From: Candidatus Hadarchaeota archaeon | GTDB lineage: Archaea > Hadarchaeota > Hadarchaeia > Hadarchaeales > JAWBSP01 | Direction of reading: 5' to 3' | NCBI GenBank assembly: GCA_964474885.1 | Contig: CAYYWO010000003.1 | Coordinates: 57,337-121,336, forward strand | DNA length: 64,000 bases | Shown here: positions 2,348-39,962 of the stretch, in pieces | Numbering within the stretch: position 1 is the first letter of the stretch | Layout: each line of letters starts with the position of its first letter | Position numbers and translations under genes: made by a program | The notes under the pieces: model-generated | Databases searched by the model: none | The model's input: only the letters and a program-made list of their open reading frames with translations | What the model was told of the DNA's origin: nothing

Positions 2348-2394
2348 TTGTCTTTTCCCCCAAATACCTTTTAAGCTTTTTAAGGGAAAACAGA

Positions 2395-4854
2395 ATGTCA
2401 AAACGGATCCGTACTCAGAGGGCCTCCTTCCTCCTTGTAGTCTTTGCAGTCCTGGTTTACATAGCACTCTGTGCTATTTTCAATCCAGGGGTCCCAGCCA
2501 CTTCATATCTTCTCCCCGCTTGTGTCTTGGTTCTGGCCACAATTATGTACCTCAATGTGAACAGAGTTTCCGAGTTTGTCAGAGAGCACCCCAAAGAGGT
2601 GGTCATCGCCATCTTAATCGTGACCGCGTGTTTAGCGACGGGTCTTCCCAAACTAACCTTCAATGTCGAGCTCAGGTCATATTTGCCACCCAGCTATGAA
2701 TCGGCTAGGACGACACTGGAGGTGGAAAACATGCTGGGAGGTGTGAGCAGTGAGGTGATCCTGCTTTACTCGGACAATCTCTTAGATCCAGCGTGCGTTG
2801 CGGCCGCCCATAACCTACGTGTCGCTCTGGAGAATGAGCTTGATGGTTATCTCGTTGCAAGACTGTTCTGGTACCTTGAGCCCATCGAGCGGGAACTTGG
2901 GGAGAACTTTCCGACAGGCCCTGAGCTGGAGAACAGACTCCGGCAGTTGCTTTCAGATCCAACCATTTTGGGGGAAGTGGAGCCCCACATAAGGCGAGTT
3001 GAACCCGAGCTCGCTGAAAACTTTCGGATAGTCAGGGGAAAGGAGGGCAAGCAAGTAGCCAGGCTCGTGTACAGGGTGGCCAAAATGCCTAGCTGGGAGG
3101 AAATCTCTTACGCTAAGAAGCTGGAGCGGATCGTGAAATCCTGTGTGGAAGACTCCGGCTATGTATTCGAGGCGACGGTGGGTGGTGACCACTCGACATC
3201 TAAAGACTTGATGAGGACGATCGAGGAGGAGCGGATTTATCTCTTCGGTACAGCAGGAATCCTGGTCTCACTATGTCTCTTCCTCACCTTCAGAAAACCT
3301 AGGGACATTCTCCTCGCACTGTTCACCATCGGTCTAGCCATCGCCTGGGTGGTTTGTCTGATGGGGTGGCTGGGGATAGAGTTCTCACCCGTGGTTGTGG
3401 GGGTCTTCCCACTCCTCATAGGCTTGGGGATAGATTATTCGGTCTACATGAACTACAGGTACTCTGAGGAAAGGTTGAAAGGGAGAGGCCCGGGTCTTGC
3501 CGCTGGCTTGGCAATAGCCACGGTGGGGACGGCCATTTATCTATCATGTATGACTACCATGTTTGGTTATGGATCTTGGTTGACTTCCCCTATGGAGCCC
3601 TTGTTTGACTTCGGCGCACTGAGCATGGCAGGCATAGGATTCGCTTACATGCTTTCCGTAACGTTCTTGCCCTCCTGCAGGATCCTCTTAGACCGGGGTG
3701 TTCGGAAGGGAGAACTGGTAGACAGGTTCTCCGCTAGGGCACTTGAGACGGGCCTCTCCAAACTGGCAGTGGTCGTCGAACGTCATGCCAAATGGTTCTT
3801 GGTTGGAGCGGTGATCGTTACTCTACTGGCGGCCTACAGTGCGATGCATACCAGAACGGCTCTCGAATGGGAGAAGATGACCCCTCAGGGTATGGAGAGC
3901 CTTGAAACCTCGGACTTGTATCTCAAGCTGTGGCCGGAATACAATCCCATGGGTGCCATTCTTGTTATGGTCAAGGGAGACATAGCTTCTCCGGAAACTC
4001 TACGATGCATGGATCAGATACAGACTTATGCTCCTCAAAGGTGCAGGTATGTAACGGATGCGTGGAGCATCGTGGACTTTGTCAAACAGAAGAACGGTGG
4101 GATACTCCCGAGCACTAGAGAAAGGGTAGTTGAGATATTGTCGGAGCTAAGTGAACCGACCTACGCTTCCCTGATATCTCCCACCTACGACCGGACGATC
4201 ATGTTTATTACGACATACACGACTACCGATCAGGAAGTACTTGCTGCCACAGAAAACGTGAGGTACTTGGTGGAGAAGTACGGGCAAGTAGAGAACACGA
4301 AGTTCCTAGTCGGAGGACTGCCAGCCATCGGTGCAGATCTCTTGTCAGAATTGGTCCCCTCACAGCTGAGGACGACTCTTATAGCCCTAATCGGGTGCTT
4401 CCTCATCTTGTGGGCGGTGTTCCGGAACCCAAAGGAGGCCGGGATTTGTATGGTACCCGTCGTGCTCACGGTGGTCTGGGGACTGGGTATGTTCTGGCCT
4501 CTGGATATTCCCATAAATATCGTCACGGTTCTGGTTTCTGCAATCCTGATTGGTATTGGTATAGATTACGCGATCCATGTGCGCCACAGGTACGTGGAAG
4601 AGCTGAGCAAGGGGAGGAGTATAAAGCACGCCATCAGGGAGACCATGGTCAGGATAGGGGGAGCAGTCTTCGGTGCCGCGACGACCTCTCTGTCCGCTAT
4701 GGGCACCCTGATGGCCTCTAGGATGCCCGCGATTGCTGTTTTCGGGAAAATGATCGCCTTGGAGTTTGTAGCTTGTCTATGCGCGGTTTTCTTCGTGCTT
4801 CCGGCTTTGTTGGTCTGGCTGACCAAGAGAGGGAGCATACGTGTAACCACTTGA
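2395..4854 (+). CDS. MMPL/RND-superfamily membrane transporter.
   Basis: The start is trimmed to M50 ('MSKRIRTQRASFLLVVFAVLVYIAL'). There are two hydrophobic TM bundles separated by large soluble loops, and a 'GIDYSVYMNYRY' motif typical of the MMPL/SSD family. Confidence 0.6.
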   Translation: MSKRIRTQRASFLLVVFAVLVYIALCAIFNPGVPATSYLLPACVLVLATIMYLNVNRVSEFVREHPKEVVIAILIVTACLATGLPKLTFNVELRSYLPPSYESARTTLEVENMLGGVSSEVILLYSDNLLDPACVAAAHNLRVALENELDGYLVARLFWYLEPIERELGENFPTGPELENRLRQLLSDPTILGEVEPHIRRVEPELAENFRIVRGKEGKQVARLVYRVAKMPSWEEISYAKKLERIVKSCVEDSGYVFEATVGGDHSTSKDLMRTIEEERIYLFGTAGILVSLCLFLTFRKPRDILLALFTIGLAIAWVVCLMGWLGIEFSPVVVGVFPLLIGLGIDYSVYMNYRYSEERLKGRGPGLAAGLAIATVGTAIYLSCMTTMFGYGSWLTSPMEPLFDFGALSMAGIGFAYMLSVTFLPSCRILLDRGVRKGELVDRFSARALETGLSKLAVVVERHAKWFLVGAVIVTLLAAYSAMHTRTALEWEKMTPQGMESLETSDLYLKLWPEYNPMGAILVMVKGDIASPETLRCMDQIQTYAPQRCRYVTDAWSIVDFVKQKNGGILPSTRERVVEILSELSEPTYASLISPTYDRTIMFITTYTTTDQEVLAATENVRYLVEKYGQVENTKFLVGGLPAIGADLLSELVPSQLRTTLIALIGCFLILWAVFRNPKEAGICMVPVVLTVVWGLGMFWPLDIPINIVTVLVSAILIGIGIDYAIHVRHRYVEELSKGRSIKHAIRETMVRIGGAVFGAATTSLSAMGTLMASRMPAIAVFGKMIALEFVACLCAVFFVLPALLVWLTKRGSIRVTT

Positions 4855-17056: not shown

Positions 17057-17827
17057 ATGAGAGTCGAGGACAGAGTCGCGTTCATCTGGGACATCGATGG
17101 TGTGGTCGTGGATAGTCCCCATGAGCACGCTTGGAGGCAGACGGCACTAAGATGGGGGGCGAAAGAGCTGACTCCGGAGTTCTACTTCCAGCACGTTGCG
17201 AGCAAACCTAGGTATGTCGGGGGTCACGCGATACTGGAGCTCCTAGGCATATACGAAAAGCACGGTGCAACAGATGAACCCTCCCGCAAAGAACTCTTAG
17301 CCCGCTTCTGCGAGGAAAAGAACCGGATGATTCAGCAGCTGATCAGAGAGGGGAAGTTTGAGGTTTTCAAGGATGCCGTCGGATTGCTCCTTCAAGCGAG
17401 GAAACGTGGAGTAAAGCAAGCTGCAGCCTCAGCTTCGAAAAACGCGAGGCCCATGCTGGAGAGAGTAGACGATGAGAGGTTGAGGCAGTTGGGTTTCGGG
17501 GATCTCATCGGGGACATTAAACGCCTGTATCAGGCATTCGAGGTCGATGTCTGCGGCCTAGATATCGAGGAAAAGGCAGGGATTCAGCGTTTCGCGGCGG
17601 AGCGGTTGAAGGAGAAGTTCCCCTCCCTCGCACACTTTGTGGTCTTTGAGGATGCACCGGCGGGGGTGGGAGCTGCACATCAACTCGGATTTTTTGCAGT
17701 CGGTGTTAGGCGCATAGGGAGTCGGGAGGAGCTGGTCCGAGCGGGAGCGGATGTGGTAGTGGACTCCCTGACGGAACTGACCTTAGATCAGCTGTTACGG
17801 CAGGTATCCAAGAAGTTCAGCCTTTAG
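17057..17827 (+). CDS. HAD-superfamily beta-phosphoglucomutase-like hydrolase.
   Basis: '[20 protein letters not shown]' is HAD motif I (DxDG). It sits next to the GH65 phosphorylase, the classic GH65 plus beta-PGM pairing. Confidence 0.6.
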
Positions 17828-20702
17828 CAACACCTATCGGTACCATCCTGGCGACCCTCTTGGCTATGCCTGCTCTGTCCGAGATCTCCGCAACTTTGTC
17901 CACATCCTTGTAGGCTTCGGGGGCTTCCTCAGCGATGACGGACACCTGAGCAGCCCTTATGTATATCCCCTTGGAGGCCAATCTTCTCCTCACCTCGTCC
18001 CCCCTGTACTGCCTTAGGGCTGCGTGGCGGCTTAAGTGCCTTCCAGCTCCGTGGGCGGTTGATCCGAAGGTTTCCTCCATAGCCCTCTGGGTACCCACCA
18101 GGATGTAGGAGGCAGTCCCCATGTCACCGGGGATGAGAACAGGCTGCCCCACCTCCCGATACAAGGCAGGGATGTCGGGATGCCCGGGACCGAAGGCGCG
18201 TGTTGCTCCCTTGCGGTGGACCACAACCTCTTTCACTTCCCCATCGATCCTGTGCCTTTCCAGCTTGGCGATGTTGTGTGCAACGTCGTAGACGATGTGG
18301 AGCCCCAACGATTCCGCATCCCTTCTGAAGACCTGCTCGAACGATTGTCTCACCCAGTGCACGATCATCTGGCGGTTTGCCCAAGCGTAGTTCGCCGCGC
18401 ACTTCATGGCTGAGAAGTAGTCCTGGCCTTCGGGGGATCGGAATGGAACGTTCACGAGCTCACGATCCAGCAGGCGGATGCCGTACCGCCTGACTGCGTG
18501 CTCCATCCGGCGGAGGTAGTCGGAGCAAACCTGGTGCCCCAGACCGCGGGAGCCCGTGTGGATCATAACCGTGACCTGCCCCTCGTGCGTTATCCCGAAA
18601 GCCTTGGCTACCCGAGGCTCGTAAATTTTATCCACCACTTGGACCTCTAGGAAGTGATTTCCGCTTCCCAAGCTACCAAGCTGGGGGAGCCCACGGTTCT
18701 TCGCCCCCGTACTCACCTTCGACGCCGAAGCTCCCTCCATACATCCCCCCTCTTCCAGCCGCTCGAGGTCCTCCTGCCAGCCGTATCCGTTCTCCACGGC
18801 CCACCTGGCACCGTGCTCGAGCACCTCATCCAGCTGGGGCATGGAAAGGCGTACTTTGCCGCGGCTCCCTAGGCCTGAGGGGACGTTCCGGAAGAGGGTG
18901 TCAACCAGCTCGCGGAGCTTGGGCTCGACATCTTTTTTGTCCAAATTCGTCTTAACTAGGCGCACCCCGCAATTCGAAGTAACGAATCCCTCCGCAACAA
19001 AGTTGTGGTGGGAGTCGGCAACCGTGAAGTCGTACACCCAACCGTCATGGGGTATGCTTTCTATCTGCACCACCTTGTCGAAGACCACTTCTCCGTCCAC
19101 GTGCTCCTTCATGAACCGTTCGAAGGTCGGGAAGTTTTGCGGAACTCGGGCATCACCAGTACCCTCGTAGAGACTGCGTTCAATGAGCCGCCGGTTGACC
19201 ACACCACGGTAGCGCCGCAGGAGCTCTGCGGATCGCCCGTGGCCCTCTTGGATCTCGCATCTGAGGAGCTCTCTCTCACGTTTCACGGCCTCTTTGAATT
19301 TCAGGAAAACGACGGCGGCCAAGGCACGTGCTTTCCTCTCCCGGTTGTACTCGTAACCGATCTTGCTCCACAGTGCTATCAGGTTCTCCGGCCGCTCGTG
19401 AACGCTCAGTCGATAAACGATCCTTCCATTGTCCCTCTCCGCCACTCCGACGGTCGAGGAGACCCCGAATTCGTTCAGGATCCGCTTCAACTCGTTGAGG
19501 AAACGCCGTCCATCCACCTCCTTTCCCTGCTTTCTTGATACTTTCACTTCAGGCATGTAGAAGTTGTAGCCGTTCATCGTCTTGGGGGCGGACATTTCAG
19601 CACCGAAGTAGGCTGCGAGGAAGAGGCGCTTCAACCACAGGGGCAGCCTGGAGATCCAGTGCGGGACTTCCAGCCTGACCTGGGTCTTCTTCCCCCTGGG
19701 ATAGCCCAGAGCCAGCAGGAGCTCAGCCAGGCTGCGAGCGGAGACCTTAAGGGAAGCCTCTGTTCGAACAAACTCACGCCCCTTGAGCCTGTGTCTCCTC
19801 CTGCGCGTGTAGATGGAAGACTTGTATCCTAAACGCTTCAGATCCGCTTGGATGTCCTGCAGGTCCTCCAGCTTGCCGTAGAATATCACGCTTTTCCCGC
19901 AGATGGTCCCGTCACCTAGCAGGTACCCGAGCAACTTCAAGAGGAGGGGCAGCTTGGGATTCCGGGCTGTTAGGGGTAACAGGCCGCGCTTTTTGAGTTC
20001 TTCTCTGATGGCTGACCTGAACGCGGTCTCACGGACTATCTCGAAGTCAGTTGCCTCCTCATACGGAACTCCCTCGAATGGGTGCAACCCTACTTCCGTT
20101 CCCACGGTGAGTCCTCCCGCTTCCCTCATTCCCTCGCGGGTCAAAATCGGGTGGTCGGGGGAAAGTGCCAGCTCGAATCCCGATGCTGTCTTTATTTTCA
20201 TGACAGATTTGTCATTCCTGCGGAGTGTCAGGATTACGGGGGTCGGTTTCGCTCGATTCTGGTTGAGAACCACCACCTCTTGTCCCACCGAGACCCTCTC
20301 TATGGGCAGCCAGAAGCCAAGCGGGGTCAGCACCCGCGTGCCAGCCGGCAGGCAGTTTATATCGTAGCCCACGCCGCCTGGCGAGATGACCCCGGTTTCA
20401 GCATCAGTTGCTGCGACTCCTCCTATCGGGAAGCCGTAGCCCTGATGCCCGTCGGGGAGGACGATAGAATACTTGTAGATGCCGTCGAGGGAGGCGACAT
20501 TCGCCCCCTGCTCCAGCGTTAGATCCTTGCCCATCTCCTGCAACATTTCCCGGTCCGCGTAGATCCTCGCCGGCACGCGCATCCCCGGCTTGTAATCTGG
20601 TGGGATTTCCCACCGCACCTCGTCGATCTGCCTGATCTTCCCCGGCAGCGGCATCATACTATTCGAGGGAGGAGGTATGACTAAAAAGCTAGATGTCCAC
20701 AA
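17817..20702 (-). CDS. rtcB: RNA-splicing ligase RtcB interrupted by a ~461 aa intein.
   Basis: Extein blocks 'GGVGYDIN' | intein | 'CGVRLVKTN...' reconstitute the conserved RtcB 'GYDINCGVRL' metal-binding motif. The C-terminal extein carries the RtcB His-rich motifs ('NHFLEVQ', '[10 protein letters not shown]', 'HNIAK'). The true start is probably M16 or M17. Confidence 0.85.
18972..20354 (-). mobile_element. Intein with a LAGLIDADG homing-endonuclease domain inside rtcB.
   Basis: It begins with Cys ('[11 protein letters not shown]') and ends '...[12 protein letters not shown]' followed by Cys+1. An internal '[13 protein letters not shown]' is the LAGLIDADG motif. Coordinates come from counting residues (N-extein 116 aa, C-extein 384 aa). 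Confidence 0.75.
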
Positions 20703-21114
20703 CCGCCTGCACGCAGCAGGCCCCGGGCTTTTCCTCTACCCGCATCATGTGATAGGTCATGGCCTTCACCGAAGTCTTGGCGGGATGTTTTTCCGGGTTG
20801 AAGGCCTCACCCCAAGCTTTCCCTTCTAGGCAGAGCCCCGACGCGCTCCGCTCGATCTTCACCTCGAACTTGGAGAAGAGCAAATTCTGACTGTCGTGAT
20901 AAGAGATCAGTGAGTCCAGCCAGTCGTAAAGAAGGGCCTCCTTATCCTCCGCCTGCAACTCCAGCTTGACCATCTCTTTCGGTTCTACTTTGCTGGTGTC
21001 CGTCATTATCTCGAAAAGCGCGAGTGCGGCGTTTTCGAAAGCCTCCGCCAAGGTTTTCCCGTAGGCTCTAAAGCCGACATCGGAAGGGTGCTCCACCCAC
21101 TCGAAACGCTTCAT
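20689..21114 (-). CDS. Archease (RtcB activator).
   Basis: '[34 protein letters not shown]' is the archease N-terminal signature. The gene is immediately upstream of rtcB and overlaps it (operon). Confidence 0.8.
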
Positions 21115-29968: not shown

Positions 29969-31196
29969 GCATCCCGAGCTGGCTGCTTTGGGCCGGTCAA
30001 GGATAGAATGGGCTACCCAGCACATGCCCGTTTTGGCCAGGATAGCCAAGGAGTTGGAGGAGAGAAAGCCCTTGAAAGGCCTGCGTGTGGGGTTAGCGCT
30101 CCACGTAGAGGCAAAGACTGCAGTTCTCGTGAGAACTCTGAGCCGAGCTGGAGCAAAAATCACCATTGCGGGTTGCAACCCCTTGTCTACTAAGGATGAG
30201 TGTGCTGCGGCCCTGGCGGAGGAGGGGCACGAGGTCTTCGCGTGGAGGGGTGAGACGGAAGAGGAGTATTGGGAGAACTTGCGTTCTGTCCTTGAAACGC
30301 GTCCCCAGCTTATCATCGATGATGGCGGGGACCTGACCTCCTTAGCCCACAGGATGGGTGTGAGTGGGATCTTTGGTGCTTGCGAGGAGACTACCACGGG
30401 AGTGAACCGGGCAAAGCAAATGGAGAGGGAGGGCATCCTGAGGTTCCCCATAATAGCGGTTAACGACACGCCGTCAAAACGTCTGTTCGACAACAGATTC
30501 GGAACGGCCGAGTCCACCCTCCAGGCAGTGTTAACGATAACAAATCTGCAGCTATCTGGGAAAAGGGTGGTGGTAGCGGGGTACGGGCATGTTGGGAGGG
30601 GGATAGCCTCTAGGATGAAGGCAATGGGTGCAGTTGTTTACGTGGTTGAGGTGGATCCGATCAGAGCCCTGGAGGCAGCCATGGACGGTTTCATCGTCAC
30701 GGACATGCAGGAAGCCTCTCGCGTGGGGGACATCTTCATTACGTGTACAGGGAGCGTCAACGTGATAAGGAAGGAGCACTTCTCCCAGATGAAGGATGGG
30801 GTCTTGCTGGTGAATGCCGGGCATTTTGATGTCGAGATAGACCTCAGGTCCCTCAGAGACATGGCAAAGGAGCACAGGAAGGGCATCCAGGATGTTGAGG
30901 AGTTCGTGCTGCCGGATGGTAGGAGACTCTACGTCCTGTGTCAGGGGAGGCTGGTAAACCTAGCCGGGGAACACTCAATGGGGCACCCATGTGAGATAAT
31001 GGACATGAGTTTTTCGCTCCAAGCCCTCTCGCTCTGCTATCTAGTGGAGCACAGGGATGAAATGAAACCAAAGGTCTACCCAGTACCGGAGGAAATCGAC
31101 AAGAAAGTAGCCACATTAAAACTCCTCTCCTTGGGAGCAAAGCTGGAGGCTCAAACAGAGGAGCAGATCAGGTACAGATCAAGTTGGTTGCTCTGA
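29955..31196 (+). CDS. ahcY: Adenosylhomocysteinase.
   Basis: 'RIEWATQHMPVL', the NAD-binding 'VVVAGYGHVGRG' and the C-terminal 'HLPKKLDEKVA-like' region. The start is trimmed to ATG 29955 (M19 of the track ORF). Confidence 0.85.
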   Translation: MTRIKHPELAALGRSRIEWATQHMPVLARIAKELEERKPLKGLRVGLALHVEAKTAVLVRTLSRAGAKITIAGCNPLSTKDECAAALAEEGHEVFAWRGETEEEYWENLRSVLETRPQLIIDDGGDLTSLAHRMGVSGIFGACEETTTGVNRAKQMEREGILRFPIIAVNDTPSKRLFDNRFGTAESTLQAVLTITNLQLSGKRVVVAGYGHVGRGIASRMKAMGAVVYVVEVDPIRALEAAMDGFIVTDMQEASRVGDIFITCTGSVNVIRKEHFSQMKDGVLLVNAGHFDVEIDLRSLRDMAKEHRKGIQDVEEFVLPDGRRLYVLCQGRLVNLAGEHSMGHPCEIMDMSFSLQALSLCYLVEHRDEMKPKVYPVPEEIDKKVATLKLLSLGAKLEAQTEEQIRYRSSWLL

Positions 31197-32720
31197 GAAT
31201 GCCCAGGCGAATTTCCTGAGAAGGCTGCGAGTGTAAATCCGCTCAACCTCCACCTCCACTTGTTTCGCCCACCTAGCGTAGATCTCAGGATTTATGTAGC
31301 TCCTCAATGAGGTGGCCAAGTTGTAGCCCTTAGTCTTTTTTACAAGATCGAGCTTGAGTTTTTGCTCTCTCAACCTCTGTCTCAGCTTGCGCAACCTCTC
31401 CCGGTTTCTCTTGGTCATCCTCTTCTTTTTCAACTTCTCTATCCGCTCCTGAATCTGCTTTATCCTCTGTTGCATTCTCTCAACCCTCTCCTTCCACTTT
31501 TTCGGCGGTTTTTTCTTGTGGTTCAGAATTCTAGCTGCTCTGAGGTTCGCCATCTTAGCGACATAGACTTTTTTGTAGGGATGGTCCCTACTGCTTAGCC
31601 TGGCTTCCCTCAAAGCTTTTTCAACCTCCTTGCTCGCATAATAGGTCCTGAAGACCTTTGCGGTGATGCCGGGCACTATTTTTCCAAGGAACTCATTAAC
31701 CTGCTCGCACCTCACGTCCGGGAAAATCCTGGAACTTTTGCTCTTTTCCATACATTCCTTGAGATTCCTGACGACTTGGGGCGGCATTCTGACGATTCGC
31801 CGGAATCTAACGGCCCCCTTGCCCAAGAAGTCGAATTTGACCTTGTCCTCCCCTAGTATTTTCACGTTTGACTTCTTGAGAGTGGTTGCACCAACTGTGT
31901 CGAGCTCGTCGGGATCTTTTTCATCCCCTACCCTTATCTTCAGGAGGTCGATGAGGTAAGCGACCGTGGCTATCTTCCTTACTTGGGGGTCGGGGGACTC
32001 TAAGCCTCTTAAGATGTGTTTCTGCATCTCAGGAAGCTTCTTCTCGAGTTCTTTAGCGAGTTCAAACTTCTTTTTCTCTCTTTCTTGCTTGATCTTGGCT
32101 GTATCCGCAATCCAAATGTACTTCATTTTTCCGGTTAATTTGTCCCTCCACTTCGCAATCCAAAGAGCATTCGGTTCCCATACCCTTCCTCCCCAAGAGC
32201 TTCCATCTGGGGTTGGGGGAGTGGGAGCGTCTGGGGATAGGTTCAGGATTATGTCAGAGTAGTGAACTCGGGGTTTCCACCTGCCCCTGAGAGGATGTTT
32301 TCCTCTTCCCACAAAAATGCAGGGGGGCTCAACTCTGTAATTGACTTCCACTTTCTGGCCATCGATTATAGCATACCCATATTTCTGCTTTCTTTCTTCG
32401 TTTTCCTTCTTCCGTCTTTCCGCCAATTCTTTTTTGTGCTCCTTGGTCAATGCTTGGTTTGTTTCAATCCACTTCCTGATCTCACTAAAATCGAAGTCCT
32501 CCAGTTTTCCGCCGTCCAAGTTCAGTGCCTTGCAGAAGTCCCGTAGGAAGTTGCGGACGAAGACAGGATCTTCCAGACGTTCGGGAGAGCATTTGACGAA
32601 AGCCAAGGCCATCTCTTCTTGTTCCGGGTTCAACTTGATTTCCTTTCCTCGGAAACGAATCTTAAGACCTTTTGGTTCATACGGTGGAATAAATACTCCG
32701 TTGTGAACGAGTTGGAGCAT
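31179..32720 (-). CDS. Eukaryotic-type DNA topoisomerase IB.
   Basis: The core and catalytic regions include 'KYIWIADTAKIKQ', 'RIVRMPPQVVRNL' and the C-terminal 'LATSLRSYINPEIYARW' (equivalent to the active-site Tyr motif 'SKINY'), separated by a Lys/Arg-rich linker. Confidence 0.8.
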   Translation of the reverse strand: MLQLVHNGVFIPPYEPKGLKIRFRGKEIKLNPEQEEMALAFVKCSPERLEDPVFVRNFLRDFCKALNLDGGKLEDFDFSEIRKWIETNQALTKEHKKELAERRKKENEERKQKYGYAIIDGQKVEVNYRVEPPCIFVGRGKHPLRGRWKPRVHYSDIILNLSPDAPTPPTPDGSSWGGRVWEPNALWIAKWRDKLTGKMKYIWIADTAKIKQEREKKKFELAKELEKKLPEMQKHILRGLESPDPQVRKIATVAYLIDLLKIRVGDEKDPDELDTVGATTLKKSNVKILGEDKVKFDFLGKGAVRFRRIVRMPPQVVRNLKECMEKSKSSRIFPDVRCEQVNEFLGKIVPGITAKVFRTYYASKEVEKALREARLSSRDHPYKKVYVAKMANLRAARILNHKKKPPKKWKERVERMQQRIKQIQERIEKLKKKRMTKRNRERLRKLRQRLREQKLKLDLVKKTKGYNLATSLRSYINPEIYARWAKQVEVEVERIYTRSLLRKFAWAFSEQPT

Positions 32721-32738: not shown

Positions 32739-33167
32739 TTATGTTACCCTTATGTAGCGCAGGATTTGATTGGCAGGCTTGTAGACGATCGTTATTACGT
32801 CGCCGAAGGCAAGTGGCTTTGGAGCTTGGACATATAGAACATCTCCTGCACTCAAAGTGATCATGCCTTGAGGATTGTTATCCCCGTTGTACGACACAAT
32901 AGTGGCATTTTGACCATTTACCCGTACAATAAGGTTGTTCCAGCTTTTACCGTTAATGGCATCCTTGATGTTATCCCCACCCATATGGTAGATTGTGAAA
33001 TTTTCGTAGCCGCTTGATGCGTTCTCTAACATGAGGTTTACATTCACTGGAGTGGGAACAGTTCCAACAAGTCCCGTTGCGATCACGGCCACCATCGAAA
33101 CCAACAAGACTGTAACGACAATCAGTAGAACTGTTGCTATTACTGGAGATACTCCGTTCTGTTGCAT
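32739..33167 (-). CDS. Archaeal type IV pilin/archaellin-like protein with a class III signal peptide (DUF361-type).
   Basis: 'MQQNGVSPVIATVLLIVVTVLLV' is a prepilin-peptidase site (G|VSPVIA) followed by a hydrophobic helix, then a beta-rich C-terminus. Confidence 0.65.
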   Translation of the reverse strand: MQQNGVSPVIATVLLIVVTVLLVSMVAVIATGLVGTVPTPVNVNLMLENASSGYENFTIYHMGGDNIKDAINGKSWNNLIVRVNGQNATIVSYNGDNNPQGMITLSAGDVLYVQAPKPLAFGDVITIVYKPANQILRYIRVT

Positions 33168-33182
33168 TATAATTATCTTCCC

Positions 33183-33191
33183 TATAAATAT
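33183..33191 (-). promoter_or_regulatory. Candidate TATA box for the pilin gene.
   Basis: 'ctataaatatt' lies about 17-24 nt upstream of the pilin ATG (33167) on the minus strand. Confidence 0.3.
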
Positions 33192-33193
33192 TA

Positions 33194-33976
33194 GTGGAGG
33201 GAGGGCAGGTGATCCCGACTGGGGTTAAGTCAGTCGACCTATTAGTTGGAGGGGGTGTAAGAGCTGGATCCCTTATCCTTTTATATGGACCACCCAAGGC
33301 ATTCAAGTCGGAATTTCTAGCAAATGTAGCAGTCATTTGGGCGGCAATGAAAGAAGGCAAACTCAAACCACCAAGAAACGTGAAGATCCCTAGGACAACT
33401 TGGTATCTTTGTTTATCAAAATCTCCTACTGAAATAACCAGCTCGGTCAAAAATATGTTCAGCAAGAAGTACTTTGAACTCTTCAAGAGGAATGTCAAGT
33501 TTTTAGACTTGAGCAAGGAGTACTCAGCCCTTGTAGGTTCATTCTGGGAAAAGCAGAAAACACCAGATGTGAGAAAATTCGTCCTCAGCATCGTCAACAA
33601 ACTCAAAAAGATCGGCCCGGAATCCCTACTGTTCATCTACACGCTGACTGACATAGCGAGACTCCTGCATGAGAGACCGGTAGAGTTCTTGTCCTTTATG
33701 GAGGGTCTTCGCACGGCCGCACACTCTTGGAAGGGAGTGGTTTATGGAATCCTGAGGAAAGGGGCCCTTCCAACAGCTATGGAGGAAGATATTTTATCCA
33801 TCTCCGACGGCACATTTTACTTTGATGTTGAGAAGGTTGGTACCAGCGAGAGATACACTTTGACGTTACTGGCCCTCAGTGGAGTCCCCACCTCTGCCTT
33901 AGGTCAAGTTTTCGAAATTTCAGTCACTTCAGATGGATTTCACGCTGAGGCAGTCAAATCCATCCTCGGGGTCTAG
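33194..33976 (+). CDS. ArlH/FlaH-like KaiC/RecA-family protein with a degenerate Walker A (probable pseudo-ATPase).
   Basis: 'IPTGVKSVDLLVGGGVRAGSLILLYGPPKAFKSEFLANVA' aligns to the FlaH N-terminus ('GGGIP.GSL.LIEGD.GTGKS') but has GPPKAFKS in place of GxxGxGKS. It uses a GTG start. Confidence 0.5.
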   Translation: MEGGQVIPTGVKSVDLLVGGGVRAGSLILLYGPPKAFKSEFLANVAVIWAAMKEGKLKPPRNVKIPRTTWYLCLSKSPTEITSSVKNMFSKKYFELFKRNVKFLDLSKEYSALVGSFWEKQKTPDVRKFVLSIVNKLKKIGPESLLFIYTLTDIARLLHERPVEFLSFMEGLRTAAHSWKGVVYGILRKGALPTAMEEDILSISDGTFYFDVEKVGTSERYTLTLLALSGVPTSALGQVFEISVTSDGFHAEAVKSILGV

Positions 33977-34122
33977 TCTATTTTTTCGATCTCCTTGGAG
34001 CAGCAAAAAGGGCAGAGTAGAATCTTGTTTCCACGGTCTAAAAACAGTGCTGGTTCGGAAAATTCGTACGAGCAATTTTTACATCGAAATTTAGCTTTAG
34101 CTTTCTTCTGCTTCTCCTTCAT
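33973..34122 (-). CDS. Small zinc-ribbon protein (49 aa), absent from the supplied ORF track.
   Basis: Hand translation of the minus strand gives MKEKQKKAKAKFRCKNCSYEFSEPALFLDRGNKILLCPFCCSKEIEKID, a CxxC...CxxC pattern with a Lys-rich N-terminus. It fills the gap between the ArlH-like and MinD-like genes. Confidence 0.35.
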   Translation of the reverse strand: MKEKQKKAKAKFRCKNCSYEFSEPALFLDRGNKILLCPFCCSKEIEKID

Positions 34123-34157
34123 CTTCCCTCCGTATCATTATCGGTATAAACGGATTA

Positions 34158-34874
34158 TTGGATTGGAGGATGATATACGCGATAATATCCGGGAAAGGGG
34201 GGGTGGGGAAAACAACCTTGGCCGCGAACCTAGGCCCACTAGCTGCGGAGCTTGGTAAAAAGACGCTTTTGGTTGATACAGATTTAGCCGCTGGAAATCT
34301 TGCTCTTTATCTGGGCTTAACCGAACCGAGTAAGACCCTCCACGACTTGTTGGCAGGGGAGAAAGATATACATTCCTGCATATATTCCCTCCGTGAAGGT
34401 CTCGATGTCCTGCCAGCTGGCCTTTCCCTAAAGGGATTTTTGAAAGCAGACATAGCCGGGCTCCCGCAACTCATGAAGAAAGTAACCAAAGGTTATGAAG
34501 TCGTAATTTTAGACACGCCCCCTGGTATAAGCAGGAATAGCATAGTCCCGTTGAAGTGCGCAGATCTAGCAGTTCTCGTCACCACGGCGGATCCACCCTC
34601 CCTAACCGTTAGCGTAAAGATGAAGGCCATAGCTTCCATTCTCGATAGGAGGATTGCTGGAACGGTCATAAACCGAGTAGAGAAAGGATTTTTAAAGAAG
34701 AACAAGCCAGCGGTCATTGCCAAGCAGCTGGGAACGGAAATCGTGGGCACTATCCCCGAGGACGATAAAGTAAAACAGTCAATTGAGCTCGGGAAGCCCA
34801 TTGTTCTCCACCGACCCAAATCGCAGGCTTCTAAAGCTCTTAGAGCGATCGCGTTAAGTCTTTTTGGCGGATAA
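34158..34874 (+). CDS. MinD/ParA-family P-loop ATPase (TadZ/CpaE-like).
   Basis: The deviant Walker A 'ISGKGGVGKTTLAANLG', 'VLVDTDLAAGNLALYLG' and 'VVILDTPPG'. Confidence 0.7.
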   Translation: MDWRMIYAIISGKGGVGKTTLAANLGPLAAELGKKTLLVDTDLAAGNLALYLGLTEPSKTLHDLLAGEKDIHSCIYSLREGLDVLPAGLSLKGFLKADIAGLPQLMKKVTKGYEVVILDTPPGISRNSIVPLKCADLAVLVTTADPPSLTVSVKMKAIASILDRRIAGTVINRVEKGFLKKNKPAVIAKQLGTEIVGTIPEDDKVKQSIELGKPIVLHRPKSQASKALRAIALSLFGG

Positions 34875-34897
34875 ATCAGTTCTACTTTAGGTAATAG

Positions 34898-36547
34898 ATG
34901 AAAAAATCTAAACTTAAGTCCAAACTCAAATCGGAGCAGCTCAGTTTGCTGAAGATTGAGGAAAGGGATGAAGAACTGGAGCAGCTCAGGAGTTATAGTG
35001 ATAAAATAATGGGTGAGAGCATTCACCTCTCTCCCTCTCCAACCACCTACGATCCGATCAGATTCGGCCCCCTCGTCTCTTTCCGCTTGCCAGAAGGGTA
35101 CACAGAAGTCGAGAGGTATTGGCTGGATCCTCCTTTCGCCTTCGTGGTGGTTCTTGAAGACAAGGGTACAGGCAAAACAACTTATCATATAGTCGAACCA
35201 GAGCTAACACCATTCGAGCGCGCACTCTTGGACAAAATAAAGGATGAATTGTACGATAGATTGCCCTATGAGGGTTCTAGAGAACCGGAAAAAGTGTTTG
35301 AGAGAGCCTACGCGGAAGTTGCTAGAGCTCTAGGAGTGAAGGATTGGCGCATGTACCACAAGCTGTTGTACTTCCTGAAAAGAGAAACACTCGGGTTCGG
35401 CAAGCTGGATCCAATTTTTAAAGACAGGAATGTCGAGGATATTTCATGTGATGCTCCTGGTGTGCCAGTTTTTCTTTACCACAGGAAGTACTACAACATA
35501 GAAACTAATCTCATCTTCGATCGGGAGGAACTAGATACCTATGTGATGAGACTCGTTGAAAGGAGCGGAAAGCATGTTTCACTAGCCAGGCCAGTTGTGG
35601 ATGCTACACTCCCAGGAGGTCATCGTCTTGAGGCAACCTTTGCAACTGAGGTGACGAGCAAGGGAAGTTCTATGTCCATTCGAAAATTCATGGGCGGCAC
35701 TTTTACTCCAGTTGACTTGATAAGATTCGGAACTTTCAGTCCATCTATGCTCGCCTACCTCTGGATAGCAGCGGAGAATAGAAAAAGCATAATGGTTATT
35801 GGGGGCACAGCTGCGGGGAAGACCTCCACCCTGAACGCCCTCGCCTTCTTCATACCACCGGACGCCAAGATAGTGACGATAGAGGATACACGTGAGCTCT
35901 CCTTGTACCAACAGAATTGGATCCCTATGGTGACTAGGGAGGCTCCAGGGGAGGCGATGAAGATAGACATGTATGAGTTGCTCAGGCAGGCTCTCAGGCA
36001 GAGACCAGAGTGTTTGATTGTAGGAGAAGTGAGGGGAAGGGAAGCGATGACAATGTTTCAAGCTCTCTCAACTGGACATACCGCATACTGTACATTGCAT
36101 GCCGGAAACGTTCAGGAGGCAATTTTGAGACTGGAGAGCGATCCGATGAACGTTCCACACACCATGATATCTGCGCTGGATATAATATGTGTTCAAACGA
36201 TTGCCTATTTGGGAAAGAAAAGAGTCAGGAGAAATCAGCTTATCGCAGAAATCGTGGGGGTCACCCCACAAACTAAGGAGGTCAAACTTGTGGAGCTGTT
36301 CAGTTGGGATCCGTCAACTGACTCCTTTAAGGAATTGGCTGAACCCCCAAGTTGGAAGGAGATATGCAAGATGAGAAACATAGACAGGCTGGATCTCGAG
36401 AAGGAATATGAGAGGAGGGCGGAGTTTTTGGCAACAATGGCGGAGAAGGGCGTGACCGATTACGATGATGTATCGAGGCTGATAAACCTTTACTATTTCA
36501 ATCCGGAGAAGGCATTTGCCGAGTTGAGGGCATTTAAGAAACGGTAA
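34898..36547 (+). CDS. ArlI/FlaI-like type IV filament assembly ATPase (TadA/VirB11 superfamily).
   Basis: Walker A 'IMVIGGTAAGKTSTLNAL', the Asp box and Walker B 'IVTIEDTRELS', and the His box 'ALSTGHTAYCTLHA'. Confidence 0.8.
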   Translation: MKKSKLKSKLKSEQLSLLKIEERDEELEQLRSYSDKIMGESIHLSPSPTTYDPIRFGPLVSFRLPEGYTEVERYWLDPPFAFVVVLEDKGTGKTTYHIVEPELTPFERALLDKIKDELYDRLPYEGSREPEKVFERAYAEVARALGVKDWRMYHKLLYFLKRETLGFGKLDPIFKDRNVEDISCDAPGVPVFLYHRKYYNIETNLIFDREELDTYVMRLVERSGKHVSLARPVVDATLPGGHRLEATFATEVTSKGSSMSIRKFMGGTFTPVDLIRFGTFSPSMLAYLWIAAENRKSIMVIGGTAAGKTSTLNALAFFIPPDAKIVTIEDTRELSLYQQNWIPMVTREAPGEAMKIDMYELLRQALRQRPECLIVGEVRGREAMTMFQALSTGHTAYCTLHAGNVQEAILRLESDPMNVPHTMISALDIICVQTIAYLGKKRVRRNQLIAEIVGVTPQTKEVKLVELFSWDPSTDSFKELAEPPSWKEICKMRNIDRLDLEKEYERRAEFLATMAEKGVTDYDDVSRLINLYYFNPEKAFAELRAFKKR

Positions 36548-38307
36548 TGAGGTTGATCAATCCGGAAAAATATTCTGACCTCCGCTTAACACTCAGGAAA
36601 CTGAGGAAACCTCTCTCCCTGAATGAGTATCTGAACCAGAGCTTATTGCTGGCTTTAGTTGTGGGAATAGTTGTGGCAGCTGCTCTCTTTTTGTTCTCCT
36701 TTCTATTACACTTGCCTTCTCTCTTCATGTATCTGCCTTTCTTCTTGGCTCCGCTGAGCTCTTACTTGGTTTGGAGGATCATGCTGTGGTATCCCTGGAG
36801 CGCCGTAAAGGGTAGGGAAGTTAAGATAGATCTCATGCTTCCCTCAGCTGTTTCTTTCATGTATGCTCTCAGCAAGGGGGGGTTAACGGTAGCCGAGATT
36901 TTCCGGATGTTGAGTCAAGAGAGGGAAGACTATGGGGAAGTAGCGGTTGAGGCGGCTAGTTTCGTCCGAGAACTGGATTATCTTGGATATGATCCTGTTA
37001 CCGCCCTAAGGAACCTAGCTTCCACGACTCCCTCTCAGAAATTCAGGAGGCTAATAGAATTCCTCATCCCGGTGGTCCAGACGGGGGCAAATCTAGCAGA
37101 TTATTTTGCCCAGAAATGCAAAGAGCTATACGAGGCTGCCGAGGTCGATCAAAAAAGGTACTTGGACACCTTGGCATTCTATGCAGAATTCTATGTCATC
37201 CTGATGCTCTTTGCCCCATTGGTTCTGATCGTGACCCTGATGGCAGTCATGGCTTTTTATGGAGCCTCTATGATGATACTCTATATCTTGGGATATCTGC
37301 TCATCCCGCTCGGTTCAATCTTCTTTATAGTTCTCCTTAGCATGAAAGGCTTCGGAGTTATAGGTAGTAGGAAAGTTGAGCGCAAGAAATACTTCCGTAA
37401 AGTGCGCCCCCGCAATCAGATTGAGAAGAGCATGCTTAGGAGGCTGCTTCCAGCTGAGACAATGCCGGAAATCTTACTTCACCCAATGAGAGTTTTCAAA
37501 ACACAACCGCACCAGGTTATGTTTTTCAGCGGAGGTGCAGCTTCTCTCTTTTTGTTTTCTTTCTTCCCCCATATCAACTTGACTACACTATTCTATGCGT
37601 TTCTGATCCTCGTGGTACCTTTTATTATTTTCCATGAGATCTGGAGCAGGAAGTTGAGCCAACTGGTGGAATACCTGCCAGAGTTTCTTCATTCTTTTGC
37701 GAGTGCAGCCTCCGCTGGTGTCCCCCCAGCTCATGCCATAAAGCTGGTGCCCGCAAGGGAACTAGGCCCCCTGAGAGAGGATGTACAGAGGATGGTGAAA
37801 TACATTAATTGGGGGGACTCCTCAGTTGAAGCAGTTCACAAAGTGGAGAGAGAGTGCGGAAACAATTATCTCTCAAGGACGATGGCAGTAGTGAGAAGGG
37901 CATGCTTAGCAAAAGGTGAAATCGCTGATGTCCTCCAGGTTCTCGCAACCGACGCCACTCAGCTGAGAGCTTTGAAGAGGGAAAGATGGGCAGCGATGTT
38001 TTCATATGCGCTCATAGTCTACATTTCTTTTGCGGTCTTTCTTTTCTGCATGGTCATGCTGACGCGTTTTCAATCTCTAGGCCAATTAGCTACAACTACT
38101 CCAACCACAACAAAACTCGGCATGACGGCCCCAGTTTACCAGGTCAAAACGACAACCCCATCTGTTGTGTGGCATGCAACAATGCTGCAGGCATTTTTTT
38201 CTGGCTTGATAGCGGGGCAGTTCTCAACTGGTAGATTGTTCTCGGGGTTGAAGCACTCAGTTATAATGATGACGGTAGCATTTGTTGTTTTGAACTTTTT
38301 TGCCTAG
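36547..38307 (+). CDS. ArlJ/FlaJ/TadC-like polytopic membrane platform protein.
   Basis: 586 aa with two repeats of the T2SSF-like helical domain. It directly follows the ATPase, overlapping by one base. Confidence 0.7.
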   Translation: MRLINPEKYSDLRLTLRKLRKPLSLNEYLNQSLLLALVVGIVVAAALFLFSFLLHLPSLFMYLPFFLAPLSSYLVWRIMLWYPWSAVKGREVKIDLMLPSAVSFMYALSKGGLTVAEIFRMLSQEREDYGEVAVEAASFVRELDYLGYDPVTALRNLASTTPSQKFRRLIEFLIPVVQTGANLADYFAQKCKELYEAAEVDQKRYLDTLAFYAEFYVILMLFAPLVLIVTLMAVMAFYGASMMILYILGYLLIPLGSIFFIVLLSMKGFGVIGSRKVERKKYFRKVRPRNQIEKSMLRRLLPAETMPEILLHPMRVFKTQPHQVMFFSGGAASLFLFSFFPHINLTTLFYAFLILVVPFIIFHEIWSRKLSQLVEYLPEFLHSFASAASAGVPPAHAIKLVPARELGPLREDVQRMVKYINWGDSSVEAVHKVERECGNNYLSRTMAVVRRACLAKGEIADVLQVLATDATQLRALKRERWAAMFSYALIVYISFAVFLFCMVMLTRFQSLGQLATTTPTTTKLGMTAPVYQVKTTTPSVVWHATMLQAFFSGLIAGQFSTGRLFSGLKHSVIMMTVAFVVLNFFA

Positions 38308-39534
38308 TCAGGTGGGAATTTCCCCAGGAGCGGCTCTCCTCCGGAGAAGCACTATGAGCACAACGATCACAACGACCAACACGACCGCAACGAGCACCAT
38401 GTTGGTGCCAGCGGGCAGGGCGGTGGGTTGAGAAGGTGTCTTTACTTCCTTCCCGAAGATGTAGACTTTGTGCTCCTTGTCTGACCTAGAGGTGCAGGCT
38501 ATCATATAGTCCCCCCCATCTGACATGTCTATACTTTCCACGTTCCCCTCAATACCAGTGACCAAGGTAGACTTCCATTTCAAACTCTGCCCTTCGAGGT
38601 AGTAAACAGTAGCCATGTCAGCTGCGAAAACTTTAGTACCATCTGAGCTTATGGCTACCGAAGAAGCGGGGGAGGTGCTCTCCATGAGTAAGGTACTCGT
38701 CCCATCCCGCTTGTAAAGAATGAACTTCGCTGTTTCGCTTCCGGCAGCAGCGACCGCGCTGTTACCATCAGGTGTCACATCAACTCCGAATACGCAAACA
38801 CCAGGATTCCACTCTCTTACCACGCTTCCATTATCTGTCAGCATTAGCACCTTTCCATCTCGGGTCCCCGCAACTATCGTACTTCCATCGGCAGAGATAG
38901 CGACGCAGGTAGTGTATCCTTCCTTTACAAAGCGGAGGCCGCTATCATCGAAAATGTATAAACCATTGTCTGTGGCAGCTGCCGAAATCCGACCGTTTCT
39001 CGACAGAGCCACGGCAATTACAATGTATCCATATTTGCCCCTCCATAGGGGGGTTCCATCCTCCGAGAAAAGTGTAACGTGACCATCAGATGAGCCAGCG
39101 ATCACTCTTTTGCCATCACCCGAAATGGCCACAGCTCTAGCGTAAGGAGATATTTTCTCGACCTGATACTCCCACGACAGGGTTGCTTGTCCCGTTTGCT
39201 CCAAGGTGTTTGAGTAGCATCTTACCCACCCATCATTACATCCAGCTACGAAGGCCGAACCATCGGCAGAGATAGCCACGGAATTGACATAGGAGTAGCC
39301 ACTGTATTTGTACTCCCATGCTTTGGAAACTTTATTCCCCATAAGCTTGAACACCCAAATCTTCATCAAATCACCTCCCGCTACGAACCACTTTCCATCG
39401 GCGGACACTGATACCGAGTTTACCCAGTCACCACCTTCGTACTTAAAAATAGGTGAAGATTCGGTTTGGGCTAATGCTGCCAAGATGAGAGCTAGGCATG
39501 CAAGAACGCTGACAGTTCTTGCATCCTTCTTCAT
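38308..39534 (-). CDS. Secreted beta-propeller repeat protein with a C-terminal TM anchor.
   Basis: An N-terminal signal ('MKKDARTVSVLACLALILAALA'), at least 7 repeats of the form 'V.IS.DG...VAG..DG.V', and a C-terminal 'VLVAVVLVVVIVVLIVLLRRR'. The start is trimmed to M5. Confidence 0.5.
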   Translation of the reverse strand: MKKDARTVSVLACLALILAALAQTESSPIFKYEGGDWVNSVSVSADGKWFVAGGDLMKIWVFKLMGNKVSKAWEYKYSGYSYVNSVAISADGSAFVAGCNDGWVRCYSNTLEQTGQATLSWEYQVEKISPYARAVAISGDGKRVIAGSSDGHVTLFSEDGTPLWRGKYGYIVIAVALSRNGRISAAATDNGLYIFDDSGLRFVKEGYTTCVAISADGSTIVAGTRDGKVLMLTDNGSVVREWNPGVCVFGVDVTPDGNSAVAAAGSETAKFILYKRDGTSTLLMESTSPASSVAISSDGTKVFAADMATVYYLEGQSLKWKSTLVTGIEGNVESIDMSDGGDYMIACTSRSDKEHKVYIFGKEVKTPSQPTALPAGTNMVLVAVVLVVVIVVLIVLLRRRAAPGEIPT

Positions 39535-39962
39535 ATTATTCCCCATTTGGGTCTTCCCTTGTAGGTTAGTGAAAGGTAAGCGCCCACTATTAAGAGGAAA
39601 GCTCCAGCGGCATATAACACCAATGCGGCCCCCACTCCGCCGACGGCGCTCAGGATCATCAGTCCACCTCCTCTTTTTGGTTCATCCAGGACTACAACGG
39701 CCCCCACCAAGCCTATTAGTGCGAACGCCGCACCGATTGCTGGGAGGAAAATATTTTTAGGTGTAATCAGTGCGGTATAGGTCGCATATTCTTCGGGGAA
39801 CAAACCAGCTTGGCCGAGGAAGAAGGTTGCATAGCCTGCTAATGATCCAATCAAGCCCATTAGTCCACCCAACAGACCTATGATGCAAGCAGCGATGGCA
39901 CGCCGAGATAGTGAAGGCCTTGGACCTTCCGGAGAGGGTGTGGAGCTTGGCTTTACATCCAT
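39531..39962 (-). CDS. Small polytopic membrane protein.
   Basis: Three or four hydrophobic helices rich in Gly and Ala. It is upstream of and overlapping the beta-propeller gene. Confidence 0.35.
   Translation of the reverse strand: MDVKPSSTPSPEGPRPSLSRRAIAACIIGLLGGLMGLIGSLAGYATFFLGQAGLFPEEYATYTALITPKNIFLPAIGAAFALIGLVGAVVVLDEPKRGGGLMILSAVGGVGAALVLYAAGAFLLIVGAYLSLTYKGRPKWGII

Follow-up and report, generated by a model that had tools for sequence, protein, structure and literature searches.

We analyzed a 64,000-nt stretch of DNA (hereafter, the window) from Candidatus Hadarchaeota archaeon (GCA_964474885.1, contig CAYYWO010000003.1, positions 57,337-121,336 of the forward strand), in which an earlier note had pointed out genes of a type IV filament system. 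The genes for a pilin, a KaiC-like protein, a MinD ATPase, a pilus assembly ATPase (PilB) and a membrane platform protein (PilC) together span a single 5.6-kb locus. This locus very probably encodes a Hadarchaeote type IV adhesion pilus of the PilB3 class, that is, a system of "clade 2" in the scheme of Makarova et al. (2016) and of the "Halo pilus" group of Denise et al. (2019). The proposal that we are dealing with a type IV filament other than an archaellum is thus borne out: the pilin is of the Pilin_N type, and both the ATPase and the platform score far under the archaellum cutoffs.

The ATPase matches the Pfam families PilB3_N (39.5 bits) and PilB3_C (28.3 bits), in both cases above the cutoff of 27, and its Walker A motif, GGTAAGKT, is intact. 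When compared with the PDB, it matched A. fulgidus GspE (2OAP) with 476 bits (E 1e-141), S. acidocaldarius FlaI with 269 bits and CpaF with 141 bits. The NCBIfam FlaI model NF058587 gave 380.7 bits against a cutoff of 550. The platform is the product of one gene; it is 586 amino acids long and contains two T2SSF domains and multiple hydrophobic segments. ArlJ models scored at most 77 bits on it against cutoffs of 400-570 (550 for the 77-bit match). With such scores, and with the ATPase far nearer to A. fulgidus GspE/PilB3 than to FlaI, the ArlI and ArlJ identities previously given to these two proteins do not hold. The platform gene overlaps pilB by 1 nt (TAATG) and is translationally coupled to it.

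The filament protein (142 amino acids, with a single N-terminal hydrophobic segment) is encoded by the only open reading frame of the 64-kb window with a class III signal. Cleavage is predicted after MQQNG, directly before VSPVIATVLLIVV, so that the mature part would start with VSPVIATV... No Pfam archaellin family matched this protein, which is probably the major pilin. It is conserved at 38-46% identity in six related loci (L001-L006) and duplicated in L001 and L002; in this sub-lineage, a second pilin paralogue (162 amino acids) is encoded beside the first. The Pfam scan of the window covered its main open reading frames apart from a few small ones and the block of ribosomal-protein genes at about 24-28 kb. 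Neither archaellin nor ArlF/G, ArlC/D/E/X or che genes were found among the scanned reading frames, in agreement with the observation that arlF/G/X/CDE are absent; on the same scope, the 30 kb to the left and right of the locus contain no archaellum genes.

The MinD protein is 234-238 amino acids long, and ATG 34170 is likely the true start of its gene because tblastn matches begin at residue 5. The deviant Walker A motif, KGGVGKT, is intact from residue 9. The best PDB matches are archaeal MinD proteins (1HYQ, 1G3Q and 1ION), with FleN next. The CpaE-homologue model TIGR03815 (named Ssd) reached 53 bits, far under its cutoff of 154.45. By these matches, the protein is a standard archaeal MinD, and its description as TadZ/CpaE-like has to be abandoned; its length also leaves no room for the N-terminal domain of TadZ. 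The gene ends 23 nt upstream of the ATPase gene on the same strand, and MinD is probably encoded in the same transcript as PilB and PilC. TadZ/CpaE, FlhG/FleN and Haloferax volcanii MinD4 are likewise MinD/ParA-family ATPases that are encoded with, or act on, a filament or motility machine, with a presumed role in its placement or assembly. Indeed, an archaeal MinD positions the motility machinery in H. volcanii (bioRxiv 10.1101/2020.04.03.021790; PMC11588486). Unlike the window MinD, TadZ has an N-terminal receiver-like domain and an atypical Walker A motif, and MinD4 has an extended C terminus, whose absence from the window protein is judged by length only.

For the KaiC-like gene, GTG 33209, preceded by GGAGGGAGGG, is the likely true start, because P0001, a 100% identical protein, is 255 amino acids long. 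Fold comparison gives a single-domain KaiC/RecA fold, as in FlaH. The Walker A motif reads GPPKAFKS, not GxxGxGK[ST]: the second and third glycines are gone, and the Lys-Ser pair is kept in the window clade. In Walker B, the Asp is replaced by Tyr (FIYTLTD versus the family consensus hhhDSLTD). With both motifs degenerate, the protein is plausibly a pseudo-ATPase.

The relationships of the KaiC-like protein emerge from its family. In a single-sequence search of the PDB, the window protein alone found only insignificant Rad51/RadB P-loop matches, and a word-based search yielded only seven close homologues. An exhaustive HMMER search of 1.84 billion representatives retrieved 94 clusters at E <= 1e-3, mostly of 250-300 amino acids. 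Pfam KaiC (PF06745) is matched by 45 of the 47 aligned relatives, though not by the window protein itself; P0001, P0005 and many relatives have precomputed DUF7125 matches, and many relatives carry the JGI name "KaiC/GvpD/RAD55 family RecA-like ATPase." When compared with known structures, the family profile scored 77.8 bits with KaiC, 56 with SSO2452, 41 with PH0186, 40.6 with PH0284, about 40 with RadA and 38.8 with FlaH (4YDS). Since KaiC, SSO2452 and PH0186 all score above FlaH, the protein is, by its profile, FlaH-like in fold and size and not an ArlH orthologue. The NCBIfam FlaH model gave it 26.8 bits with a cutoff of 194. Hence, of the earlier term "ArlH-like pseudo-ATPase," the single-domain FlaH/KaiC fold and the degenerate Walker motifs remain, and membership in ArlH does not.

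The nearest genomes are the Ca. Hadarchaeales/Hadarchaeota metagenome-assembled genomes JAWBSP010000007.1 (isolate JZ-1) and CAZWBJ010000006.1, with KaiC-like proteins of 71-73% identity. A metagenome scan with the PilB alignment yielded 80 loci, which were annotated by hmmsearch and phmmer. In the tier-1 loci (L001-L006, L012-L014 and L023; PilB 75-78% identical), the gene order is identical to that of the window; the seven reading frames of the earlier note are conserved in related DNA, on at least 10 contigs. Since housekeeping flanks, e.g., TopoIB and an NTPase, are common to the tier-1 loci as well, their synteny alone is weak evidence of a functional link. The ten tier-2 loci (PilB 48-54% identical) are more telling. 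There, the genes for the KaiC-like protein, MinD, PilB and PilC are adjacent in three different orders or orientations: a minus-strand KaiC-like gene beside MinD-PilB-PilC (L015-L019); KaiC-like and MinD genes both on the minus strand next to PilB (L022); and PilB-PilC-MinD-KaiC-like followed by a pilin gene (L024-L026, the pilin being detected in L024 and L025). Gene order is thus conserved in related genomes as far as tier-1 is concerned, whereas tier-2 keeps the four genes in three different arrangements. That they remain adjacent despite rearrangement, in loci of which at least some are from Hadarchaeota, argues for a functional four-gene module. The KaiC-like gene is linked to PilB/PilC in all tier-1 loci, in 9/10 tier-2 loci and in L031/32, L007 and L009; the exception is L020, where the MinD gene has only about 670 nt of contig upstream of it. 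Among the NCBI members of the KaiC-like cluster matched by the tier-2a proteins are some named Hadesarchaea archaeon.

More distant KaiC-like relatives from Methanoperedens and Methanosarcinales also adjoin PilB3/T2SSF/pilin genes, and the neighbourhood in Methanosarcinales further includes a ParA/MinD gene and another KaiC-like gene, which is canonical. The pilus-linked relatives have all lost one of two residues, the Lys of Walker A or the Asp of Walker B. The tier-2a proteins have an intact Walker A and a His in place of the Walker B Asp. The Walker A Lys is missing from tier-2b (GSGNV), tier-2c (GSGPQ), tier-3 (GAGDF), Methanoperedens (GAGST) and Methanosarcinales (GSGHY) proteins. In two loci (L009 7001-8484, Methanosarcinales, and L031 8179-9719, tier-3), directly after the KaiC-like gene that lacks Walker A comes another single-domain KaiC-like gene, whose P-loop is a canonical GTGK[ST]. 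The arrangement recalls the two domains of KaiC and suggests a pair of one inactive and one active protein. The gene upstream of the pair in L009 encodes a PAS/DUF835 protein.

A large set of more distant PilB relatives (L037-L091, e.g., L050 8963-13483; 40-44% identity) lie in open reading frames of about 800-1100 amino acids. These begin far upstream of the part that matches, which probably reflects an N-terminal extension. The platform that follows PilB there is split between two genes (about 300 and 345 amino acids), a different, TadB/TadC-like architecture. Wherever the contig extends far enough, a MinD gene is found some 3.5 kb upstream, in three loci on the same strand and otherwise on the opposite one; the whole set lacks a KaiC-like gene.

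Several points weigh against the assignment of the locus to a clade 2 adhesion pilus. Pfam revealed no prepilin peptidase among the scanned open reading frames of the window. The putative adhesive function is deduced solely from which class of ATPase and pilin the locus encodes, and the roles of MinD and of the KaiC-like protein are proposed by analogy. The placement of the ATPase in the PilB3 type and in Makarova clade 2 relies on bit-score ranking and the Pfam PilB3 domains. Finally, the KaiC-like family is not exclusively pilus-linked, since two of its haloarchaeal members have no type IV pilus genes around them.

These two proteins, together with the housekeeping flanks shared by tier-1 loci and the report that archaeal MinDs are "more often encoded separately" (PMC4858521), would fit a situation in which MinD and the KaiC-like protein are unrelated neighbours, engaged in, e.g., cell organisation or signal transduction, and the system consists of pilin, PilB and PilC only. 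We consider this unlikely: adjacency of the four genes through three orders and orientations in tier-2 is the signature of a functional link, the MinD gene closely precedes pilB on the same strand, and the Methanoperedens and Methanosarcinales relatives also stand beside PilB3 loci.

The seven open reading frames of the earlier note are confirmed at their positions, and all except the one for the small membrane protein have supporting domain matches (Table 1). The pilin gene is transcribed leftward, the KaiC-like gene rightward, the zinc-ribbon gene leftward, MinD-PilB-PilC rightward and the propeller gene leftward. The locus had been described as a plus-strand block forming a single compact operon; the zinc-ribbon gene, on the minus strand between the KaiC-like and MinD genes, divides this block into at least two transcription units.

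Table 1. Genes of the pilus locus and adjoining reading frames (positions within the window)
Product	Position	Strand	Supporting matches and remarks
Prepilin, class III signal peptide	32739..33167	-	Pfam Pilin_N PF07790, E 2.2e-13
Single-domain KaiC-like RecA-superfamily protein, predicted pseudo-ATPase	33194..33976	+	AAA_25, 28.5 bits
C4 zinc-ribbon protein, 49 amino acids	33973..34122	-	Open reading frame in a 180-bp "gap"; convergent with KaiC-like gene, divergent from MinD gene
Archaeal MinD/FleN-family ATPase	34158..34874	+	NCBIfam TIGR01969 minD_arch, 205 bits (cutoff 201.75)
PilB3/afGspE-type hexameric type IV pilus assembly ATPase	34898..36547	+	Pfam T2SSE, PilB3_N, PilB3_C
PilC/TadC-type polytopic membrane platform	36547..38307	+	Pfam T2SSF, two stretches
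Secreted WD40/PQQ-like beta-propeller	38308..39546	-	WD40 and many beta-propeller Pfam matches; N-terminal signal, C-terminal transmembrane anchor
Small membrane protein, three transmembrane segments	39531..39962	-	DUF4064, 21 bits, below cutoff

Between the divergent gene pairs lie AT-rich intergenic regions of only about 41-47 bp (33168-33208, pilin/KaiC-like, and 34123-34169, zinc ribbon/MinD). Both contain TATA-like elements (TATAAATA and TATAAA), and GGAGG-like motifs are found immediately 5' of the KaiC-like and zinc-ribbon start codons. These features suggest that both regions may be compact bidirectional (shared) promoters. Scans for sigma-70 promoters and terminators, signal types that are irrelevant for an archaeon, gave results at chance level. 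The GC content of the locus (0.46-0.50) is slightly lower than that of the upstream region and similar to that of the downstream genes, with no clear signal of foreign origin.

The zinc-ribbon reading frame had previously been overlooked. It is intact at the same position in 6/6 of the related loci first compared (L001-L006; 60-73% identity), with the motif CxNCSYxFSEPxLFLxxGxKxLLCPFCxSxEI kept in all of them, and is also present in four further metagenome loci (L012-L014 and L023). Only sub-threshold matches to generic Zn_ribbon families were obtained with Pfam. The stop codon of the propeller gene is separated by 0 nt from that of the convergent pilC, and a propeller of 45-47% identity is encoded at the same position in L001-L006, L012-L014 and L023. 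Neither a zinc-ribbon gene near the more distant tier-2 modules nor a propeller in the tier-2 loci was detected; both genes are confined to the window's own clade. The propeller is a candidate adhesin or envelope partner. The anchored propeller and the small membrane protein are indeed both encoded downstream on the minus strand, as had been noted, but the latter is not a stable neighbour: polysaccharide pyruvyl transferase (PS_pyruv_trans) and Fe-alcohol dehydrogenase (Fe-ADH) genes separate it from the locus in L001-L003. Its membership in the pilus system is doubtful. In L001 (13002-16052) and L002 (12731-15781), these two genes are inserted between the propeller and small membrane-protein genes.

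The position of the propeller gene, which abuts pilC in every tier-1 locus, could be taken to mean that the system builds a short pseudopilus or bindosome-like structure that displays or secretes the anchored propeller, with no long adhesive filament; sub-threshold matches of the ATPase to BasE (197 bits) and of the platform to BasF (34 bits) point the same way. However, the cutoffs of the two models, 1000 and 1300 respectively, are far from being reached. The propeller bears no class III signal, being equipped with a signal peptide and a C-terminal anchor of its own, and it is absent from tier-2 modules. We therefore regard a bindosome-like structure as highly improbable.

A Tad/Epd-like pilus, or an archaellum-Tad intermediate, with MinD as the TadZ/CpaE orthologue, is slightly less probable still. 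The MinD gene does lie directly 5' of the ATPase gene, as in Tad loci, and TadZ is related to arCOG00589 and arCOG05608, the profiles of these archaeal families aligning with those of TadZ (PMC6668835). Yet Epd-like and Tad systems have a split platform, TadB and TadC, with one T2SSF domain each (PMC6668835), as opposed to the single two-domain platform of the window. The CpaF score of the ATPase is low next to that of afGspE, the CpaE-homologue model remains far from its cutoff on a MinD of plain architecture with no extra N-terminal domain, and the pilin is of the Pilin_N type and not short and Flp-like. On these grounds the Tad/Epd pilus was rejected. What survives of the earlier suggestion of a Tad/Epd-like adhesion pilus with a positioning or regulatory module is the adhesion pilus with its module, which is the best reading of the locus; the idea of an evolutionary intermediate finds no support.

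Least probable of all is a reduced or non-canonical archaellum in which ArlH-ArlI-ArlJ drive a rotating filament without ArlF/G/X/CDE: even though FlaI comes second among the structural relatives of the ATPase, the KaiC-like protein shares the FlaH fold and the archaellum clade reportedly has clade 2, the "Halo pilus" group, as its sister (PMC4858521; Denise et al., 2019, PMC6668835), we rejected it because the FlaI, ArlJ and FlaH models all fall well short of their NCBIfam cutoffs, the structural ranking of the ATPase favours GspE, the filament protein is no archaellin, ArlF/G/C/D/E/X are missing from the scanned reading frames, and all archaella possess seven conserved components (PMC4858521).

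The probable PilB3-class adhesion pilus of the window has its closest known counterparts among archaeal clade 2 systems. The H. volcanii PilB3-PilC3 pilus and A. fulgidus GspE (2OAP) have in common with it the PilB3_N/PilB3_C ATPase, a single platform with two T2SSF domains, a Pilin_N pilin and KaiC/MinD accessories within the locus or close to it. In H. volcanii, however, no pilins are encoded in the pilB3 locus, and MinD is "usually stand-alone," whereas the window unites all these genes. The window clade further adds the zinc ribbon and the anchored beta-propeller, and the Hadarchaeota were outside the Makarova 2016 and Denise 2019 surveys. According to the former, FlaH/KaiC-family proteins (including "inactivated" ones) and FleN/MinD ATPases are the commonest regulators found with type IV pili in archaea, and an ATPase of arCOG00589 is anticipated for the systems of clade 2 (Makarova et al., 2016, PMC4858521). 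The combination of KaiC-family and MinD accessories, which the earlier note had thought unusual, is thus already catalogued there. The supplementary tables of the same work list, in A. profundus, the order TadC - ATPase - arCOG01175 ("RecA-superfamily ATPase ..., inactivated"); in A. sulfaticallidus, arCOG03793 ("Inactivated KaiC-like ATPase") and then arCOG01175 after the ATPase; and in N. gargensis, an arCOG01171 gene beside an arCOG00589 gene (PMC4858521). The Archaeoglobales arCOG01175 and arCOG03793 proteins are, like the window protein, "inactivated" KaiC-like members of the RecA superfamily encoded beside a euryarchaeal pilus ATPase/TadC, a comparison made by description. Unlike most of its KaiC-like relatives, in which the Walker A Lys is gone, the window clade retains Lys-Ser. 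FlaH (ArlH; arCOG04148; PDB 4YDS, 4WIA) differs from the window protein in having a canonical Walker A motif and binding ATP, as opposed to the loss of the Walker A glycines and Walker B Asp; the window gene, moreover, is divergent from the pilin gene and lies outside the ATPase operon.

That KaiC-like and MinD proteins are generally associated with archaeal pili had already been published in 2016 and 2019. What is mildly new here is the KaiC-like/MinD/PilB/PilC module, the repeated loss of Walker residues in the pilus-linked KaiC-like family, and the zinc-ribbon gene. In the literature searched, we found no paper on the pili or other surface structures of Hadarchaeota, nor any on DUF7125. The locus predicts an adhesion pilus in at least these hot-spring Hadarchaeota lineages. 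To our knowledge, the Hadarchaeota remain uncultured.

The following scheme can be proposed for the system. The pilin would be cleaved after Gly5 by a prepilin peptidase encoded elsewhere. A PilB hexamer docked on PilC would then use ATP to lift pilins from the membrane, assembling an adhesive filament by their polymerisation. MinD, as an ATP-dependent dimer, may act as a spatial or assembly regulator of the pilus machine in the manner of TadZ, FlhG/FleN and H. volcanii MinD4. In the archaellum, ArlH binds ArlI; by analogy, the KaiC-like pseudo-ATPase is predicted to serve PilB, or else a signalling input, as a partner or scaffold without catalytic activity. Of the two clade-specific proteins, the zinc ribbon is a likely regulator, and the anchored propeller would be an adhesin or envelope partner. 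If the pseudo-ATPase does bind PilB, it would offer a simple model for the regulation of type IV filament ATPases by ArlH-like partners.

A bolder proposal, which we regard as doubtful, is that clade 2 pili have a conserved pair of cytoplasmic accessories in MinD and the degenerate KaiC-like protein, with the pseudo-ATPase forming a ring or docking under PilB as ArlH does under ArlI. As clade 2 is the reported sister of the archaellum clade, an ArlH-type partner would then predate the split between adhesion pili and archaella, and the present loci would keep a pre-archaellum state.

The other scanned open reading frames of the window are housekeeping genes; they encode ribosomal proteins L3 and L4, RtcB, archease, DNA ligase, TopoIB, AdoHcy hydrolase, eIF2alpha, AspRS, ArgRS, POR and chorismate enzymes. 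The RtcB tRNA-splicing ligase (17817-20702, minus strand, 961 amino acids) contains an intein with a LAGLIDADG homing-endonuclease domain, and the archease gene is next to it (20689-21114). At the left end of the window are genes for a 674-amino acid CARDB-domain protein, probably a surface protein (443-2467, minus strand), and an 868-amino acid membrane protein of the MMPL/RND type (2248-4854, plus strand). The gene adjoining that of the pilin encodes a eukaryote-type topoisomerase IB (31179-32720, minus strand) with Topoisom_I_N, Topoisom_I and Topo_C_assoc domains. In archaea, this enzyme is best known from Thaumarchaeota; it is conserved at 67-73% identity in all Hadarchaeota relatives (L001, L002 and L004-L006).

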